This document shows, one piece after another, positions 22,915 to 32,758 of a stretch of 64,000 bases of DNA. Origin of the DNA: an uncultured Gemmatimonadales bacterium (GTDB lineage Bacteria > Gemmatimonadota > Gemmatimonadetes > Longimicrobiales > RSA9). A program made the translations under genes and the position numbers. How positions within the stretch are numbered: the stretch's first letter is position 1; each line of letters opens with the position of its first letter. The stretch covers positions 1,408,001 to 1,472,000 of the forward strand of contig CAWCRS010000007.1 of the NCBI GenBank assembly GCA_963798085.1, written 5' to 3'. Below the pieces are notes generated by a model. That model made no database searches and had not been told where the DNA came from. It saw only the letters and a program-made list of their open reading frames with translations.

Positions 22915-24580
22915 TTAGAACAGCCCCGTGATCGTCCCGTCGGGCGCCAGCCGCATTCCCTCGGCGGCGGGTCGTCGCGGCAGACCAGGCATGGTCATGA
23001 TGTCGCCGGTGTGCGCGACCACGAAGCCGGCGCCGGCGGAAGGCGTGACGGAGCGGACGGTGATGCGGAAGCCGGTCGGTCGCCCGCGGAGTGAAGGGTC
23101 GTCCGAGAAGGAGTACTGCGTCTTGGCCATGCAGACGGGCACATCGCGCAGGCCGATCTTCTCGAGGCGTTCGATCTCGCGCAGCGCCTGTGCCTGGAAG
23201 TTCACGCCATCGGCGCCGTAAATCTGTGTGGCGATCGTCTCGATCTTCGTGGCGAGCGGCTGGTTCGTGTCGTACAGCGGGTGGAAGTCCGCACGCCCGC
23301 TTTCCGCCATGGCCATGACGGCGCTGGCCAGCTCGAGTGCGCCTTCGCCACCACGCGCGTGCACATCGGCGACCGACGCCGGCGTGTCCATGGCCTCGCA
23401 GGCATTCGAGCACGACCTGCATTTCGGCCTGTGAGTCCGACGCGAAACGATTCAGCGCAACAATGGGTGGCACACCGAACCGGCGCACGTTCTCGACGTG
23501 GCGGGTCAGATTGCCCACGCCTTTGCGCACGGCCTCGACATTCTCCGCCCCGAGTGCGCTCAGCGCCACGCCGCCGTGCATCTTGAGTGCGCGGATGGTG
23601 GCCACCACCACCGCGACGGCAGGCCGCAGCCCCGCCGTGCGGCACTTGATGTCGAAGAACTTCTCCGCGCCCAGGTCCGCGCCGAAGCCGGCCTCGGTCA
23701 CGACCACGTCGGCCAGACTCAGCGCCGTGGTGGTGGCAATCACGGAGTTGCAGCCGTGGGCGATGTTGCCGAACGGGCCCGCGTGAATGAACGCGGGCGT
23801 GCCGCCCAGCGTCTGCACCAGGTTCGGCAGAATGGCATCCTTGAGCAGCAGTGTCATGGCGCCCTGCGCGCCCAGCTGCAGCGCACGCACCGGCTCGAAG
23901 CTGCGATCGTAACCCACAATGATGCGGCCCAGGCGGTCTTCGAGATCCGAACGGTCACGGGCCAGCGCGAAGATGGCCATGATCTCGGATGCGGCGGTGA
24001 TGAGGTAGCCATCCTCGCGTGGTACGCCATTGGGCGCGCCGCCCAGTCCTACCACGATGTTACGAAGCGCGCGATCGTTCATGTCGATGGCGCGCTTCCA
24101 GGTGATGCGGCGCGCGTCGACGCCCAGCTCGTTGCCCTGCTGCAGGTGATTGTCCAGCATCGCGGCCAGCAGCGCGTGCGCCGTCGTGACCGCGTGGAAA
24201 TCGCCCGTGAAGTGCAGGTTGATGTCTTCCATGGGCACGACCTGCGCGTGGCCGCCACCGGTCGCGCCGCCCTTGATGCCGAACACCGGGCCCAGGCTGG
24301 GCTGGCGCAGGCATAACGCCACGTTGCGACCGGCCAGCCGCAGCCCGTCCGCCAGACCCACGCACACCGTCGACTTGCCTTCACCCGCCGGTGTCGGGTT
24401 GATCCCGGTTACCAGAACCAGCGTGCCCGGCTGCGGCCGGGGCGTGATCGCATCAGTCCTCACCTTCGCCTTGTAGGTGCCATACAACTCGAGGGCCGAT
24501 GCGGGGACGCCCAGCATCCCGGCGATTTCGGTGATCGGACGGAGCTTCGCAGCCTGCGCGATTTCGATGTCGGTCTGCAT
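22915..24580 (-). CDS. fhs: Formate--tetrahydrofolate ligase (frameshift near 23403)
   Basis: [38 protein letters not shown]. Confidence 0.96.
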
Positions 24581-24933
24581 GATCTCTCAACGCTGGTGCT
24601 AAGGCAGCCCCGCCGGCAGCGCGCGCGGCAAGTGCTGGCTCCCGCCTTGCGCGCGATCCCAGCAAGGCGGCGGAACCCGCGGCGGCCCGGAGCGGGCGGT
24701 AAGATACGGCCGGCAGCGGCGGATTCAACCCGCACGCGCATGCAGGATCGGTGGCCGCGCGCTCCGGCCGTACGCGATGCCCCCGCCGGGACGGCGTTCT
24801 CGCGTCGAAGGCTGCCCCGCTCGATTCGCTGAAACCCGGGCGCGGGCACCCGCGTAAGGGCGGGCGTTCCCGATCCGTTTCGAGAGGAATTCGTTCCTCG
24901 CGTACGCACGAGATCCGCGCTTCAGGAGGCTCC

Positions 24934-26640
24934 ATGCGCGCGCTCACCGTTACGCTGGCGTTGCTCGCATTCGCTCGGTATGCCAGCGGCCAGAGACCCG
25001 ATCTCCATCGTTCCGGTCTGCCCCGGCAGGAAGCGCGTCGGCTCGAGGCCGTGATCGATGACCCCGCCACGCATCGCTTCGATGGCGATGCCACGATTGC
25101 CACGGACGAAGTCATTGAAGGCGACGTCTTCGTGTATCGTGGGCTGCTCACCCTGCGCGGTACGGTGCGCGGTCAGCTCGTCGTGGTCGACGGCGATGTC
25201 GTGTTCGAGCGCGGCGCCGAGGTCACGGGCGATGTGACCGTGGTCGGCGGCTCCGCAAGAGGCGGCGACAACGCGCGCCTCGCGGGTGCGCTCACGGAGT
25301 ACGGTGAAGGCTTCGGCCTGCTGGCGCGCGCCCGCGATCTGCACGAGGGCGGCGACGTCTGGCGCAGCGGTCGCCACTGGGAGGGCAATCACAGGTACGC
25401 CGACCGGCGCCAGGACATGGGCAGCGCCGGCTTCTCGCTGTCCATTGATCGCAACTACAACCGCGTCGAGGGACTGCCGTATCGCATGGGTCCGGACCTG
25501 CGCACGGGCGGGCCGTTCGCCACGCGGCTGGCCGCGTTCGCCATCTGGCGCTCCGATGTCGGGCCGCTCACCAACACCGAGCGCATGGGCTACGTCGCCC
25601 GCGTCGAGCAGTTCGTGGGCACGCCGGCCCTGCGCCTGGGCGCTTCCGTGCGCAGCACCATCGACCCCATGGAGTCGTGGACGATCACGGACCTCGAGGC
25701 CACGCTTGCCACGGTCGTTTTCCACGAGGATCAGCGCGACTACTACCAGCGCGAAGGCTGGAGCGGCTACCTCCGTCTCGCGCCCGAACGCAGTCCGCTC
25801 GACCTGACCGTCGAGTACCGCGACGAGACGCAGCGCAGCGCGGCGGCGCGCGACCCCTGGACCGTGCTCCACACCGATGCGCTGTGGCGCAATCAGCCGC
25901 TCGCGGGGGAGGGAAGACTGCGCACCCTCAACGGCACAGCCATCTGGGATGCGCGTCACGGCGATGACTTCACGTCCCGTGGCTTCTACATGCGTGCGGA
26001 CATGGTGCACGGACTCAGTGGCTCGCTGGCGCTGCCCGCAGCCGAGCGTGAAACCGGCGAACCACTCGCCGCACGCGCTTTCGACAATCAGTTCACGGCC
26101 GGCCAGATCGACATCCGCCGCTATGCGCCCCTCGGATGGGAGGGCGCCCTCGCCTTCCGCGCCGTGGCCGGCGGCTCGTTCGATCAGACGCCGCTCGCGC
26201 CGCAGTACCAGCACGCGCTGGGCGGCGCCAACACGCTGCCAGGCTACCCGCTGATGAGCGTCGATTGCGGCGCCCGCACCGCGCCCGTCCGTCTGACCAA
26301 CGGATCGCAGACGACGATGTTCTTTCCATCCTACGGCTGCGATCGCTTCGCTCTCTTCCAGGCCGAGTACCGCGGCGGACTCGACTTCCACATCGGCGGC
26401 GACGAGGTCGAACACTACGATCGCAGCCCGCACTTCGACGCCAGCGTCAACTGGACCGTGTTCTTCGACGCCGCGCGTGGCTGGACCGTGGGCGACCTCA
26501 CGGAGCGCACCAGCACCGGCACCCTGTACGACGTGGGCGCCGGCGTGATCCTCGGCGGCTTCGGCGTCTACGGCGCGGTCCCGCTCACCGGCGACAGCCG
26601 CGAACTGCGCGTCTTCCTCCGCCTCGGTCCGCGCTTCTGA
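24934..26640 (+). CDS. Outer-membrane beta-barrel protein with N-terminal bactofilin-like beta-helix
   Basis: AGGAGG RBS, signal peptide, GDV..V.G repeats, YNRVEG, C-terminal LRLGPRF. Confidence 0.6.
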   Translation: MRALTVTLALLAFARYASGQRPDLHRSGLPRQEARRLEAVIDDPATHRFDGDATIATDEVIEGDVFVYRGLLTLRGTVRGQLVVVDGDVVFERGAEVTGDVTVVGGSARGGDNARLAGALTEYGEGFGLLARARDLHEGGDVWRSGRHWEGNHRYADRRQDMGSAGFSLSIDRNYNRVEGLPYRMGPDLRTGGPFATRLAAFAIWRSDVGPLTNTERMGYVARVEQFVGTPALRLGASVRSTIDPMESWTITDLEATLATVVFHEDQRDYYQREGWSGYLRLAPERSPLDLTVEYRDETQRSAAARDPWTVLHTDALWRNQPLAGEGRLRTLNGTAIWDARHGDDFTSRGFYMRADMVHGLSGSLALPAAERETGEPLAARAFDNQFTAGQIDIRRYAPLGWEGALAFRAVAGGSFDQTPLAPQYQHALGGANTLPGYPLMSVDCGARTAPVRLTNGSQTTMFFPSYGCDRFALFQAEYRGGLDFHIGGDEVEHYDRSPHFDASVNWTVFFDAARGWTVGDLTERTSTGTLYDVGAGVILGGFGVYGAVPLTGDSRELRVFLRLGPRF

Positions 26641-27031: not shown

Positions 27032-28483
27032 ATGGCAATCGATCAAGGCATGCGTGTGCGCTTCGCGCCTTCGCCTACGGGGTTTCTGCACGTGGGTGGC
27101 GCGCGCACTGCGCTGTTCAACTGGCTGCTGGCGAGGCATGCAGGTGGTGTCTTCATCCTGCGCATCGAAGACACGGACAAGGAGCGGTCCAGCGCGCCCA
27201 TGACGCAGGCGATCCTGGATGGGTTGCGGTGGCTGGGGCTGGACTGGGACGAGGGGCCGTTCTTCCAGGCGGCGGGGCTGGAGCGACATCGCCATGATGC
27301 CATGCGCATGCTGGACACGGGTACAGCCTACCGCTGCTTCTGTACGCCGGAACAGCTCGAGGCGAGGCGAGGCAGCGCCGATGGCGCGTTCCGCTACGAC
27401 CGGTACTGCCTGAGGAACGTCACGCCCGCGGCGGCGGAACGGCGCGCCGCCGCGGGTGAGCTGTTCACTGTGCGCTACCGCGTGCCCGAAGGCGTGACCG
27501 CGTGGGAAGACGCGGTGCACGGTCGCATCGAATTCGCTAACAGCGAGATCGAAGATTTCATTGTGCTGCGCTCGGATGGCACGCCCATCTACAACATGGC
27601 TGTGGTCAGCGACGATGCGGCCATGCGCGTGACGCACGTGATCCGCGGCGACGATCACATCTCGAACACACCCAAGCAGATCCTGCTGTACCAGGCGCTG
27701 GGCTTCGTGCTGCCTGTGTTCGGCCATGTGCCCATCATCCTGGGCCCGGATGGCCGCAAGCTGTCCAAGCGCCACGGCGCCACGGCGCTGGCGGAGTACC
27801 GGAATCAGGGAATCCTCCCGGATGCAATGTTCAACTTCCTCGCGCTCCTGGGCTGGTCACCGGGTACCGACGAGGAAGTCTTCACGCGCGTCGCGCTGAT
27901 CGAGCGGTTCTCACTCGCGGGCATCAATCGCAAGAGCGCGATCTTCGACACGCGCAAGCTCTCCTGGCTGAACGGCCAGCATTCGAATCGCCTGTCCGCT
28001 GAGGCACTGGCGAAGCCGGTGTTGTCGCTGGCTCCGCAGAGCGTGCGTGAGCACGCGGCGGGAGCGGAAGCCCGCGCGCGCACACTGCGGCTCATTGATC
28101 TGCTCAAGGTGCGTGCGCGCGGACTCGACGACATTGCCGCGCAGCTCGCGCGCTACCTGGCCGCCGATTTGGCGTACGATGACGACGCGGTGCAGAAGCA
28201 CTGGAAGCAGCCGGAACAGGTGGCCGCGCGGCTGGGCGCACTGCGCAAACAGCTGGCGGCTGCGCCCGCCTGGACCGAGGCGCAGCTCGAATCATTGCTG
28301 CGCGCGCTGGCCGATGCGCAGGGAGTCGGAGCCGGACAGTTCATCCATCCGCTGCGCGTCGCGCTCACCGGCCAGGCCGTCTCGCCCGGCATCTTCGAGC
28401 TGGCCGCTGCTCTCGGACAGGAACTGACGCTCGCACGCATCGATGCAGCCATAGGGCGACTGCTCGCGGCCGCATCGACCTGA
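27032..28483 (+). CDS. gltX: Glutamate--tRNA ligase
   Basis: RFAPSPTG, HVGG, RIEDTD, KLSKR. Confidence 0.97.
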   Translation: MAIDQGMRVRFAPSPTGFLHVGGARTALFNWLLARHAGGVFILRIEDTDKERSSAPMTQAILDGLRWLGLDWDEGPFFQAAGLERHRHDAMRMLDTGTAYRCFCTPEQLEARRGSADGAFRYDRYCLRNVTPAAAERRAAAGELFTVRYRVPEGVTAWEDAVHGRIEFANSEIEDFIVLRSDGTPIYNMAVVSDDAAMRVTHVIRGDDHISNTPKQILLYQALGFVLPVFGHVPIILGPDGRKLSKRHGATALAEYRNQGILPDAMFNFLALLGWSPGTDEEVFTRVALIERFSLAGINRKSAIFDTRKLSWLNGQHSNRLSAEALAKPVLSLAPQSVREHAAGAEARARTLRLIDLLKVRARGLDDIAAQLARYLAADLAYDDDAVQKHWKQPEQVAARLGALRKQLAAAPAWTEAQLESLLRALADAQGVGAGQFIHPLRVALTGQAVSPGIFELAAALGQELTLARIDAAIGRLLAAAST

Positions 28484-28512: not shown

Positions 28513-28542
28513 TTGACGATGTGCGCAGCCCATGGTTAGCAT
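28513..28542 (+). promoter_or_regulatory. Sigma70-type promoter of tRNA-Gln
   Basis: TTGACG-N18-TAGCAT about 10 nt before the tRNA. Confidence 0.5.
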
Positions 28543-28551
28543 TGGACGCGA

Positions 28552-28624
28552 TGCCCCTTGGTGTAACTGGCAACACGCCTGACTCTGGATCAGGAGAGTC
28601 CTGGTTCGAGCCCAGGAGGGGCAA
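28552..28624 (+). tRNA. tRNA-Gln(CTG)
   Basis: TGCCCCT/AGGGGCA acceptor, CCTGA-CT-CTG-GA-TCAGG anticodon arm, GGTTCGAG; CCA not encoded. Confidence 0.96.
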
Positions 28625-28755
28625 TTCGAAGCGCGACGCGGTGTCGCGCGAAGGTGGCCGCCGCAGCAGGCGGCCCCGGATGACGAAGCGGGGCGCGAGT
28701 CGAAATCGCTCGCGCCCCGCGTTCATTCCAGTCCGCACGACGTTTTCGAAAGCCC

Positions 28756-29484
28756 ATGGAACCCCTCACCGAACTGGAGCGCAAGGTTCTCGATTTCATG
28801 ATCGAGTACCTGCGCCGCAACACCTATCAGCCGTCGGTCCGCGAGATCTGCGCGGCGCTGGGCATACGCAGCACCCGCAAGGCCTCGGAGCTGCTGCAGT
28901 CATTGGAGGCAAAACAATGGATCGAGCGCACACCCTCGCGCTCGCGCGGCGTGCGCGTGCTCGGTCTGGTGCCTGACGAAGGTGCCGCACCGCCCGGCGA
29001 CGCCTGCCCCGAATACCGTGATGCCGAACCCGGTGATGCACACTGGATGCAATGCGCACTCGAGCATGCGCGCGCCGCGGCCGCGGTTCAGGAAGTGCCC
29101 GTGGGTGCTGTGCTCGTGCACGACGGGCGCATCATTGCTGACAGCCACAACCTGACTCGCACCATGACCGATCCCACGGCGCACGCGGAACTGGTGACGA
29201 TCCGCCGTGCCGCCATGCTCGACGGTCACGTCCGGCTGCTGGATGCCACGCTCTACGTCACGCTCGAGCCCTGCGCCATGTGCGCCGGTGCGATCGTGCT
29301 CGCGAAGGTCGGCCGCCTCGTCTACGGCGCCGCCGACCCCAAGACCGGCATGTGCGGCTCCCTCGCCTGCATCGTGCAGGACCGCCGCCTCAACCACCGC
29401 GTCCGCCTCACCCGCGGCGTCCTCGCCCAGGAGACCGGTGAAGTATTGCGGCAGTTCTTCCGCGAGCGACGCGGTCCGGATTGA
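28756..29484 (+). CDS. tadA: tRNA adenosine(34) deaminase with N-terminal LexA-type DNA-binding domain
   Basis: LT..E..VLDF..PSVREI..S..L..LE.K.WIER..SRG then EVPVGA, TAHAE, TLEPCAMC, DPKTG; no stop between them. Confidence 0.85.
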   Translation: MEPLTELERKVLDFMIEYLRRNTYQPSVREICAALGIRSTRKASELLQSLEAKQWIERTPSRSRGVRVLGLVPDEGAAPPGDACPEYRDAEPGDAHWMQCALEHARAAAAVQEVPVGAVLVHDGRIIADSHNLTRTMTDPTAHAELVTIRRAAMLDGHVRLLDATLYVTLEPCAMCAGAIVLAKVGRLVYGAADPKTGMCGSLACIVQDRRLNHRVRLTRGVLAQETGEVLRQFFRERRGPD

Positions 29485-29492
29485 ACTTCAAA

Positions 29493-29771
29493 GGCGTTGC
29501 TGGAGCTGGTTGCTGGGGCTGGTTGCTCGGGAACGGCTCGAATCGAGCGCGCGCCAGCGCACGCCTGGTTCCTAACGGACAATTATGGCTGCTGCTCTAA
29601 CGGCGCGTTTCGATCCGTTCGCACTTCCGGGCAACCTGCCCGGGCAATGCGGTTGAATCCGTCTTGTCGTTCCCGAGCAACCAGCCCGAGCAAACCAGCC
29701 GCAGCAACGCCGTTGATTCCGTACGTGTCGTTCCCCGAGCAACGAGCCCGAGCCCCAGCCCCAGCAAGGCG
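29493..29771. repeat. Inverted plus tandem ~60-bp intergenic repeat cluster
   Basis: 29493-29535 is the reverse complement of 29668-29711; 29652-29711 and 29712-29771 are tandem units. Confidence 0.75.
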
Positions 29772-29885
29772 TCTGGTTCCCGGACGATCCCGGCGCGGGA
29801 GCCGAATTCGCAGTTCCGGGCGTTGACAGCCCAGCCGTCCGGACGCTACCGTACCAGCCGTTTCCGCCCCACGACACCGGACCGG

Positions 29886-30443
29886 ATGGCTGAGGCGCAG
29901 CGGCTGCTGCTCATGGATGAAAGGGCCGTCGAGCGAACACTCGCTCGCATGGCTCGCGAGATCGTCGAGCTCAACCAGGGCGTCGCGGGTCTCGCCATCG
30001 TCGGCATCCAGCGCCGCGGTGTTCACCTGGCCCATCGCATTGCCGATGAGGTCGAGCGCGCGGAAGGCGTGCGCCCCTCGTTCGGCACCCTCGATATTAC
30101 CCTCTATCGCGATGATCTGACGGCCATCGGCCCGCGGCCCGTCCTCGGGCAGACCAGTCTGCCCGCTGTCGGACTCGATGGCCAGCGCGTGGTCATTGTG
30201 GACGACGTGTGCTACACGGGCCGCACGGCGCGCGCGGCACTCGATGAGCTGGCGGACTTCGGACGGCCGGCGCGCATCGTCCTGTGCGTGCTCGTGGATC
30301 GCGGCGGGCGCGAGCTGCCGATCCAGCCGGACATCGTGGGGCGACACGTGGAAGTCGCGCCGCGGCAGCGCGTCGACGTGCTCGTGCCCGAGCTGGATGG
30401 ACGCCTGGCCGTCGTGCTGAGCACACGGGAGGCTTCGTCGTGA
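29886..30443 (+). CDS. pyrR: Pyrimidine regulatory protein/UPRTase
   Basis: [34 protein letters not shown]. Confidence 0.93.
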
Positions 30444-31411
30444 GCGCGCTGCCCACGTTCCTGGGCAAGGACCTCGTGGGCCTGGAGCCGCTCAGCGCGA
30501 GCCCAGATCCTCGCCATTCTGGACACTGCCGAAGCCTTCAAGGAAATCAGCGAGCGCCCATCAAGAAGGTGCCGGTGCTGCGCGGCAAGACCATCGTCAA
30601 TCTGTTCTTCGAGGCTTCGACGCGGACGCGCATTTCCTTCGAGTTCGCGGAAAAGCGACTTTCCGCGGACACCGTGAACATCGCGGCGCAGGGCTCGAGC
30701 GTGAGCAAGGGCGAGACGCTGGTGGACACGGCGAGGAACCTCGAGGCCATGCGCATCGACATGGTAGTGATCCGTCACGGCTCCAGCGGTGCCGCGCGTT
30801 TTCTGGCGGATCGCATTCCCTCGAATGTGATCAATGCCGGCGACGGCCGGCACGAGCATCCGACGCAGGCGCTGCTCGATCTGCTGACCATACGGGATCA
30901 CCGCCGTCGCATCGCCGGATTGCGCGTGTGCCTGATGGGCGACGTGCTCCACTCCCGCGTGGCGCGCTCCAATATCTGGGGCCTGCTGCGGCTGGGCGCG
31001 GAAGTGGCCGTCTGCGCGCCGCGCACGCTGCTGCCTGCGGCCATCGAAGACATGGGCGTGCTGGTGTTCGATCGCATCGAGGCGGCACTGGAATGGGCCG
31101 ATGTGCTGAACGTGCTTCGTCTGCAGCTGGAACGCATGCAGGCCGGTTTCGTGCCCAGCCTGCGCGAGTACAACAGGCTGTTTGGGGTGACCCGCGAGCG
31201 CATTGAGCGGACCGGCCGCGACCTGCTGATTCTGCATCCCGGTCCCATGAACCGCGGCGTCGAGATCGACAGCGATGTGGCGGATGGCCCGCACGCCGTG
31301 ATCCTGGATCAGGTCACGAATGGCGTGGCCGTGCGCATGGCCGTGCTCTTCCTGCTGGCCGGCGGCATGCCCGAGCGTGCGGAAGCGGCGAAAGGAGAAG
31401 GCGGCACGTGA
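30440..31411 (+). CDS. pyrB: Aspartate carbamoyltransferase (compensating indels near 30502 and 30558)
   Basis: [24 protein letters not shown]. Confidence 0.95.
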
Positions 31412-32758
31412 TCGAGATGGATGCGCTGCTGCGCAGTGCGTCACGGCCGCGGCCACTGTTGCTGCGCGGCGGCCGCGTGGTCGATCCCTCGACGGGCACG
31501 GACGAAGTGGCCGACCTGCTGCTGCGTGACGGCGAGGTCGCAGCCATGGGTCGTGATCTTGGCTCGACCGACGGCGCGGATGTGCGCGAGGTTCGCGGCC
31601 TGGTGGTGTGCCCGGGGCTGATCGACCTGCACGTGCACCTGCGCGAACCGGGCGGCGAGCACAAGGAAACGATCGCCACAGGCGCGCGCGCCGCTGCCGC
31701 GGGCGGCTACACCAGTGTCTGCGCCATGCCCAACACGGACCCGCCGGTCGACGATCCCGCCGCCGTCGGATTCGTGCGCGCGGAAGGCCTGCGCTCCGGC
31801 GCCGCGCGCGTCTATCCGGTCGGCTGCATCTCCGTGGGCCAGAAAGGCGAGCGCCTGGCCCTCGTCGGTGAGATGGTGGAGGCCGGTGCCGTCGCCATCA
31901 CCGATGATGGCAGGCCGGTGAGCGATTCCGGTCTCATGCGGCTGGCACTCGCCTACGCACGCACCATGGGTATCCCCGTGGCCAGCCACTGCGAGGAGCT
32001 CAGTCTCTCGCGTGGCGGGTCGATGAACGAAGGGCTGGTGTCGACTCGCCTCGGCCTGATCGGCATTCCCAATGCGGCCGAAGACGTCGATGATCGCGCG
32101 CGACCTGATGCTCGCGGAGCTGACCGGCGGCCGCATCCACATCCAGCACGTGTCCACGCAGCGCGGTGTGGAGCTGATTCGCACCGCCCGCGAGCGTGGT
32201 GTGCGTGTGTCCGCGGAGGCGACGCCGCACCACTTCACGCTCACCGACGAAGCGGTCGAAGGCTACCGCACGGAAGCCAAGATGAACCCGCCGCTGCGCA
32301 CGGCGAGGGACCGGCAGGCCGTAATCGAGGGCGTGGCGGACGGCACGCTCGACGTGATCGCCACGGATCACGCGCCGCACCACTACGACGAGAAGGAGCA
32401 GGCCTTCGAGGATGCGCCCTTCGGCATTGTCGGCCTGGAGACAGCGCTGGGGCTGGCGCTCAGCGGGCTGGTGGACACGGGCGTGATCACGCTGGCGCAG
32501 CTGGTGGAGCGCATGAGTTGCTCGCCTGCGCGTGCCTTCAAACTGCCCGGCGGCACCCTGCGCATGGGCGCGCCTGCCAATGTCACGGTATTCGATCCGG
32601 CGCTGGAATGGACCATCGATGCGGCGCGTTTTCTGTCGAAGAGCCATAACACGCCGTTTGGCGGCCGGCACGTGCGCGGTCGCGCGCTGCTTACCGTGGT
32701 GGGCGGCCGCATTGTGTGGGATGCGCAGCCGCACGCCGTGAGCACGACTGCGGGATGA
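31408..32758 (+). CDS. pyrC: Dihydroorotase (frameshift near 32088)
   Basis: [27 protein letters not shown]. Confidence 0.94.

Follow-up and report, generated by a model that had tools for sequence, protein, structure and literature searches.

Gene order and domain architecture

The DNA analyzed here (the window, 64,000 nucleotides) comes from an uncultured Gemmatimonadales bacterium. It carries the gene order gltX, tRNA-Gln, a gene that joins a LexA-type winged helix–turn–helix (HTH) to the tRNA deaminase TadA, and then pyrR, pyrB, and pyrC (Table 1). In related loci gltX likewise lies 5′ of tadA or of the pair lexA2-tadA, and pyrR is the immediate 3′ neighbor in 10 out of 10 fused loci with downstream DNA. 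A sigma70-like site similar to that in Table 1 is found at most fused and unfused loci, and no conserved operator dyad was seen around it when these loci were compared. Promoter and terminator prediction made no terminator call at the hairpin.

Table 1. Features of the fusion locus, in window coordinates
Feature	Position	Strand	Remarks
gltX, glutamyl-tRNA synthetase	27032..28483	+	5′ neighbor of the fusion
Sigma70-like promoter, TTGACG-N18-TAGCAT	28513..28542	+	Precedes tRNA-Gln and fusion; one found, 0.2 expected
tRNA-Gln(CUG)	28552..28624	+	
Hairpin, 12-bp perfect, terminator-like with weak U tail	28688..28720	+	Between tRNA-Gln and the start codon
LexA2-HTH-TadA fusion ORF, 242 aa	28756..29484	+	ATG start without Shine-Dalgarno sequence
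Winged HTH, residues 1-69	28756..28962	+	Colinear with E. coli LexA 1-69
Recognition helix III, S39 T40 R41 K42 A43 S44 E45...	28870..28911	+	Arg at 41 where unfused LexA2 has Lys
Wing, R58-x-x-x-R62-S-R64	28927..28947	+	All three Arg invariant in 29/29 main-group fusions
Pro/acidic linker, residues 70-92	28963..29031	+	R64-to-W97 spacing 26-34 residues across fusions
TadA domain, residues 93-239	29032..29472	+	HAE 29182-29190; PCAMC 29269-29283; D194 (= D108) 29335-29337
pyrR	29886..30443	+	Heads pyrR-pyrB-pyrC; own promoter

Further features of the window were recorded alongside. The gap between the fusion gene and pyrR (29488-29775) holds clustered short direct and inverted repeats of the AACCAGCCCGAGCA type, with arms of at most 26 nt, and similar units also occur 5′ of a tRNA array in another locus (L262). 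A 629-aa ORF (24751-26640, + strand) has no Pfam match and is conserved beside gltX in locus L074 (54%). The genes fhs (22915-24580, − strand) and pyrC (31408-32758, + strand) are each broken across two frames, pyrC near 32066-32088, which suggests assembly indel errors or pseudogenes.

The fusion gene translates as a single frame without an internal stop. Its residues 1-65 match Pfam LexA_DNA_bind (PF01726; 59 bits, cut-off 23.7), and residues 93-239 match the NCBIfam TadA model PRK10860 (NF008113; 174 bits, cut-off 150) and include the motifs HAE (143-145), PCAMC (172-176), and DPKTG (194-198). With the ORF uninterrupted and both domain models matched, this is a true in-frame fusion of a LexA winged HTH, a linker, and a complete TadA, as the first-pass annotation of the window had it. 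The LexA cleavage site and protease domain are missing, as that annotation also held: A Pfam search found no peptidase S24 (PF00717) match, the Ala-Gly site and Ser-Lys domain being absent, and the lexA model TIGR00498, matched over residues 1-70, scores 59 bits, below its cut-off of 111. The alignment of residues 1-69 with E. coli LexA (1lea/3jso) is gap-free, so E. coli numbering is used for the HTH. The N-terminal domain has no Pfam z-alpha match and hits only LexA_DNA_bind and, weakly, MarR_2 (E ≤ 0.001). The last ~10 residues of the linker resemble the N-terminal extension of the relatives' unfused TadA.

The AlphaFold2 model (31-sequence alignment; pLDDT 88, pTM 0.65) has two folded domains separated by a low-confidence linker at residues 76-80, and its top PDB match is the S. 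aureus TadA-RNA structure 2b3j (TM 0.9 over the target). A model of a fusion from the second group described below is of low confidence (pLDDT 60). A predicted complex of the HTH with the TadA dimer scored 0.00 and was weighed neither for nor against any reading.

Distribution of the fusion

Our family sample comprises 73 genomes, of which 68 have a TadA match at E ≤ 1e-30. A full-length, stop-free fusion is found in five of these 68 (G000, G001, G023, G076, and G010, representing three genera), or in four of 67 if the unpublished G076 is left aside. Of the top 120 protein clusters listed, 32 combine both Pfam domains. The main short form accounts for 29 of these, the query and a fragment among them; one has 394 aa, and two are divergent. 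A query with the divergent HTH retrieved six further clusters, every one fused, giving a second group of eight and a total of 37 protein clusters of short fusions. A pattern scan of metagenomes yielded seven loci, six of them fusions. Databases label the fused proteins as plain TadA, and the sources named on them are Longimicrobiales or Gemmatimonadota.

The 150 matches listed from 401 genomes of the order (226 more exist) include no additional fusion, and neither do the 18 matches from 251 genomes of the phylum. A 240-position profile searched against 1.8 billion representatives (50% identity) gave a single full-length match in the best 150, itself a member of the group, and the ESM Atlas at 0.80 returned generic deaminase clusters only. 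Because the matches listed from the order, phylum, and profile searches brought no additional fusions, the architecture looks restricted to this lineage.

The first-pass annotation had entertained a misassembly, or initiation at an internal GTG that would yield a short TadA. The apparent frameshifts of fhs and pyrC in the same window would fit an artefact, as would the four public runs, which at 80% give coverage on the tRNA and the TadA core only and of which none spans the junction. What refutes a misassembly is not reads but independent homologues: the same fusion recurs at 59-69% identity in four other genomes, six metagenome contigs, and dozens of protein clusters. The GTG at 28969 (V72) is present but has no Shine-Dalgarno sequence (−2.3 kcal/mol); internal starts share no position across the 11 fused loci, and the HTH frame is under purifying selection. 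We regard the chance that the fusion is an assembly or sequencing artefact, or that a short TadA is made from an internal start, as negligible.

Origin from lexA2-tadA

The LexA-family gene lexA2 is the immediate 5′ neighbor of tadA in most relatives; in 61 unfused loci it lies 600-940 bases 5′ of tadA. All four residues that make up the LexA2 cleavage site and Ser-Lys dyad are present in 7/7 loci of family f3, whereas no locus of f1 (0/31) or f2 (0/22) retains the full set. Since the f1 and f2 proteins lack cleavage site and dyad, their C-terminal domain can serve for dimerization at most; the unfused LexA2 HTH is nearly invariant there in spite of it. LexA2 is a LexA paralogue found across the order; one family has a cleavable form and two have a non-cleavable one. 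It has no auto-operator and carries a near-invariant KSTKTVSE helix (L004-L050, L082-L107).

In trees of the TadA domain, the 29 main rows (28 clusters plus G010) form one clade within f1 with support of 84 and 93, although with other samplings this support falls to 16 and 55. The unfused rows take in the unpublished G016 and G026, with G015 and G019 only in the tree that holds P0046. Judged from these comparisons, the fusion is an in-frame deletion of the already dead C-terminal domain of lexA2, which joined the HTH to tadA; one such deletion explains the 29 main rows as one clade in f1. The first-pass suggestion of an in-frame deletion between adjacent lexA and tadA is thus right as to the deletion, but the donor is the paralogue lexA2 and the event is old and clade-wide. 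The fused HTH is 33% identical to the HTH of the canonical LexA of its genome.

Trees conflict on the relationship of the two fusion groups. A mixture-model TadA tree places them apart (supports 93/94), the HTH tree unites them (support 90), and AU tests did not reject a single clade (p 0.49, 0.53, and 0.74). Two independent fusions with a convergent K41R are therefore not claimed.

The tadA start in the unfused loci, frequently GTG or just CTG, coincides with the lexA2 stop or lies close to it, a position that suggests translational coupling of the two genes. At four loci (L010, L011, L021, and L046) tadA apparently starts at a CTG overlapping the lexA2 TGA (CTGA), after a G-rich Shine-Dalgarno sequence, and several sister loci have an in-frame CTG 11 bases short of the lexA2 end. 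A programmed frameshift from lexA2 into tadA in unfused relatives was considered and rejected, since the frame varies by genome and the loci do not share P-site re-pairing; most of the cases are accounted for by overlapping CTG/GTG starts. A search of proteins of 378-2000 aa returned a single full-length LexA2-TadA (P0029, 394 aa), whose LexA2 C-terminal part shifts frame; it is a possible intermediate or an assembly error.

The TadA domain and its tRNA substrate

Alignment with solved TadA structures equates D194 with E. coli position 108 (Asn in TadA-8.20), A192 with 106, and L170 with 84. L84 and D108 are wild type in 31/31 fusions, which bears out the first-pass remark that a retained D108 favors tRNA as substrate; A106 is kept in 29 of the 31 and is Thr in two. 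None of the 31 carries the adenine base editor (ABE) changes A106V, D108N, or L84F, and E113, N132, H143, E145, C173, C176, F234, and F235 are kept in all. The TadA dN/dS is 0.24 in fused pairs and the same in unfused f1 pairs.

The fusion is the sole TadA-type match in its genome. The genome's Arg tRNAs are ACG, CCG, UCU, and CCU, with no GCG or UCG anticodon, and 200 of the 254 Arg codons in eight window genes are CGC, CGU, or CGA, which need the ACG tRNA. The anticodon loop of tRNA-Arg(ACG) carries the TACG motif described for the TadA substrate (PMC5630033). This loop, CTACGGA, is identical in three fused genomes and in the unfused genomes retrieved; a compensating change in the tRNA substrate was looked for there and not seen. 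The TadA half looks like an ordinary tRNA-Arg(ACG) A34-to-I deaminase, this activity being predicted from the protein and its tRNA.

The genome's only tRNA-Arg(ACG) gene lies in an array of 22 tRNA genes (L261:3594-7300; G000:C5:189593-193300), whose order is identical in G001, G010, G006, G056, and G085. No operator-like motif was found 5′ of the array or at 20 tRNA-Arg loci, and control of the array by LexA2 was discarded for lack of support there. Three f3 genomes (L275, L277, and L278) have a tRNA-Leu(AAG), a possible second A34 substrate of TadA.

Among 51 long TadA-like representatives, chosen by length from the best 150 matches, 31 have a second Pfam family, from 11 families of which none is the LexA HTH. 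The partners (P0145-P0288) comprise alpha/beta hydrolase (17), NUDIX (three), DUF559 (two), DUF2087 (two), and one each of O6-methylguanine methyltransferase, CinA, GNAT, SpoU, shikimate kinase, ankyrin, and DUF3175.

Evolution of the HTH after fusion

The ratio of HTH to TadA branch length is 1.3-1.4 in 29 fusions versus 0.45-0.47 in 31 unfused family members (P0029 and the truncated P0028 are left out of these rate counts), so the fused HTH appears to evolve about three times faster. Pooled HTH dN/dS rises from 0.13-0.15 unfused to 0.43 fused, where the fused value draws on eight non-independent pairs with dS < 1, of 45, and dS is near saturation in seven of the eight. The cut sequence L075 is excluded from dN/dS, and L071, a chance pattern match, is excluded throughout. 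In the closest fused pair HTH dN is 0 at a dS of 0.17; in another, HTH dN is 0.115 versus 0.171 for TadA. Bursts of change are concentrated in the interior of the tree, with a ratio of 2.1-2.2 for internal branches and 0.9-1.0 for tips.

The positions involved are unevenly spread. Of 39 HTH columns conserved at ≥90% in 59 unfused rows (which exclude L084, containing Ns, and L025, without the WM motif), 16 stay at that level in the 29 fusions. Among these are position 41, where K41 has become Arg in 27/29 fusions and in 0/59 unfused rows, and R29, S39, K53, R58, R62, and R64, which are invariant in 29/29; R64 presumably enters the minor groove. Released after fusion are T42, S44, E45, and D59 and S61 of the wing tip, all near-invariant across three families beforehand; we take LexA wing tips to pair on the operator. 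Many core hydrophobic columns also vary among the 29 fusions. In E. coli, DNA contacts of LexA helix III involve S39, N41, A42, E44, and E45 (PMC3091678).

In the main group, HTH length is constant to one residue and linker length varies by eight. The recognition helix is often fixed within each main-group subgroup, and a G010-type subgroup has a rewritten helix with a one-residue deletion. The query copy has C32 and Q54 where Gly stands in 27/29 and 28/29 fusions, respectively. HTH conservation exceeds that of TadA in the second group (83% vs. 77%), where the helix is a near-invariant STRTVS(D) and the HTH has a net charge of −1 to −3. The substitution patterns of the main group show purifying selection on the HTH for its fold and basic surface, whereas the ancestral base-reading residues are no longer maintained.

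A strong Shine-Dalgarno sequence precedes the start at 1/11 fused and 27/31 unfused loci, a contrast that, like the one in rate, represents a single evolutionary event and not independent samples, since the fused loci are one clade. The lost ribosome-binding site points to a weakly expressed fusion protein at low copy number.

Canonical LexA and a candidate SOS box

A separate, full-length canonical LexA with PF00717 (212 bits on TIGR00498) is present in 5/5 fusion genomes, so the fusion is not a non-cleavable SOS repressor. The direct repeat CCGAA-N6-CCGAA stands twice 5′ of canonical lexA, and in 5/5 fusion genomes it stands 5′ of recA. G000 has 10 exact sites, including the two at lexA and the one at recA; two others lie at genes that we take, from sequence motifs, to be a DnaE-like polymerase and gyrA. 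In 31/31 genomes, two of which (G009 and G012) yielded no lexA2, the repeat exceeds its reversed control. In G000 other spacings are equally frequent genome-wide, so the case for an SOS box rests on position. The repeat, with a period of 11 bp and one copy over the recA promoter (L188-L217; lexA sites, L057-L061), is a candidate SOS box for the order, and f2/f3 have a TTCG-N7-TTCGG variant on the opposite strand. No published description of it was found in the full-text literature on LexA and Gemmatimonads. CCGAA-N6-CCGAA was found 5′ of neither lexA2 nor the fusion, and no shared operator dyad occurs 5′ of the 61 unfused or 11 fused loci, nor before pyrR.

Role of the tethered HTH

We favor, with somewhat less than even confidence, a tRNA editor aided by a tethered nucleic-acid-binding domain of low specificity. 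The lineage's housekeeping tRNA-Arg(ACG) A34-to-I deaminase would have co-opted the winged HTH of the adjoining LexA paralogue, and the HTH would have stopped reading the ancestral LexA2 operator. The protein would be a homodimer with two flexible, low-specificity HTH arms per TadA dimer, which may keep a weakly expressed editor on nucleic acid, be it the tRNA body or DNA near nascent transcripts, and editing would remain at A34 of the UACG loop. The sole wild-type TadA, the ACG tRNA, the retained basic HTH face, and the release of the ancestral base-reading residues speak for such an arm. Against it, the conserved, slightly acidic HTH of the second group fits specific binding better, change is concentrated on internal branches with the helix often fixed within subgroups, the tRNA substrate is unchanged, and bacterial TadA needs no accessory domain. 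A precedent is eukaryotic ADAT2/3, whose extra domains were gained for sequence-nonspecific tRNA contacts (PMC9643335).

The internal bursts, the near-invariant second-group helix, and the retained S39, T40, and R41 would suit a bifunctional enzyme-regulator, which is possible but distinctly less probable. Here the TadA homodimer would replace the dead LexA2 C-terminal domain for dimerization, and two HTHs would bind a specific operator that drifted between sub-lineages, repressing a small regulon without RecA induction while tRNA editing is kept. TadA, a homodimer (PMC9643335), sits where the C-terminal domain was, with P0029, its C-terminal domain frameshifted, the only full-length LexA2-TadA retrieved from proteins of 378-2000 aa, and the unfused f1/f2 HTH was ultra-conserved though cleavage site and dyad were lost. 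However, positions 42, 44, and 45 and the wing tip, near-invariant before fusion, vary afterward; the G010-type subgroup has lost a residue and rewritten its helix; a shared dyad is absent at 61 unfused, 11 fused, and 20 tRNA-Arg loci and before pyrR; and the lost ribosome-binding site points to low copy number. Of the first-pass idea that TadA dimerizes a non-cleavable repressor, the non-cleavable part holds, but LexA2 was already so before fusion (0/31 intact in f1); the SOS repressor is canonical LexA, and any regulatory role is weakened by the released base-reading residues. We think it unlikely, though only a little more so, that the HTH is a tolerated relic of a disappearing lexA2, a folded leader supplying the start codon of the essential tadA and conserved for fold stability. 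The roughly threefold rise in HTH rate and the C32/Q54 of the query copy agree with decay, lexA2 was not found in G009 and G012 (96% and 99% complete), and it does not adjoin tadA in 4/4 loci of another order. The TadA protein P0046 (941-nt contig) begins at a Met of its own and lacks the HTH; it groups within the fused subgroup showing the most degeneration (support 93) and may have shed the domain. TadA also readily fuses with neighbors (31/51 long representatives). A relic would hardly keep the exposed R29, K53, R58, R62, and R64 invariant in 29/29 while core hydrophobics vary, hold HTH length within one residue as the linker varies by eight, show HTH dN of 0 in the closest pair and below that of TadA in another, or conserve the second-group HTH better than TadA.

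Two further readings send the deaminase to DNA. In the less improbable, to which we give a small probability, the HTH would dock the TadA dimer at particular DNA sites, so that nascent pre-tRNA, or UACG hairpins of nascent mRNA, are edited cotranscriptionally in a locus-directed manner, possibly with trace ssDNA editing. If true, this would be a bacterial locus-directed A-to-I editor derived from a retired SOS-type repressor, parallel to ADAR1 with its Z-alpha domain. A natural DNA adenine base editor, in which the HTH brings TadA to DNA and dA is deaminated in transiently single-stranded regions, is highly improbable. The layout of DNA-binding domain plus TadA does mirror engineered editors, and a trace ssDNA activity raised by tethering is compatible with the findings. 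Yet A106V and D108N, the earliest substitutions to give TadA access to DNA (PMC10661471), are absent in 31/31 fusions and L84 is kept; the neighborhood is housekeeping, with no nickase, helicase, or defense genes among the neighbors examined; and TadA dN/dS is unaltered by fusion. A sole TadA, wild type at ABE positions 84 and 108, beside an ordinary tRNA-Arg(ACG), makes DNA editing unlikely, and the base-editor-like role proposed in the first pass found no positive support.

Comparison with known systems

Full-text literature searches, with subscription journals outside their coverage, turned up no published description of a LexA HTH-TadA fusion, and "LexA" is absent from the main text of the deaminase survey PMC3239186, whose supplements may hold architectures. 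The fusion gives a natural, clade-wide example of the layout that engineers chose for base editors, apparently retained for RNA editing. Relatives preserve the steps from a RecA-cleavable LexA paralogue through a dead protease domain to its replacement by an essential enzyme, which makes two questions directly testable: whether an enzyme dimer can stand in for repressor dimerization, and whether a TadA tethered to nucleic acid alters the range of editing in bacteria. The 37 natural variants are candidate TadA scaffolds, and the candidate SOS box for the order is a by-product.

Compared with bacterial TadA (PRK10860; E. coli 1z3a, S. aureus 2b3j), the fusion passes the family cut-off, has HxE, PCxxC, L84, A106, and D108, and is paired with a UACG-loop tRNA-Arg(ACG), but it adds an N-terminal winged HTH. 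With LexA (TIGR00498) it is colinear over residues 1-69 and shares S39, E45 (in the query copy), S63, and R64; it differs in lacking the Ala-Gly site and Ser-Lys domain and in deriving from LexA2, the SOS box belonging to canonical LexA. ADAT2/ADAT3 is likewise an A34 deaminase with an added domain, for which sequence-nonspecific nucleic-acid contacts have been shown (PMC9643335) and may be made by the fusion too, but it is a heterodimer with one inactive subunit and many tRNA substrates, and the domain it gained is of a type other than the LexA HTH. In ADAR1 p150 an adenosine deaminase is likewise joined to an alpha+beta HTH domain, Z-alpha, which recognizes the shape of the backbone and may put the editor at transcribed DNA (PMC11120146). 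The fusion has no Pfam z-alpha match and an unrelated origin, so the parallel is no more than an analogy. Engineered adenine base editors (TadA-8e/8.20 with Cas9 or TALE) share the fusion of a DNA-binding module to TadA, whereas the natural protein has neither the DNA-enabling substitutions nor a DNA-opening module.
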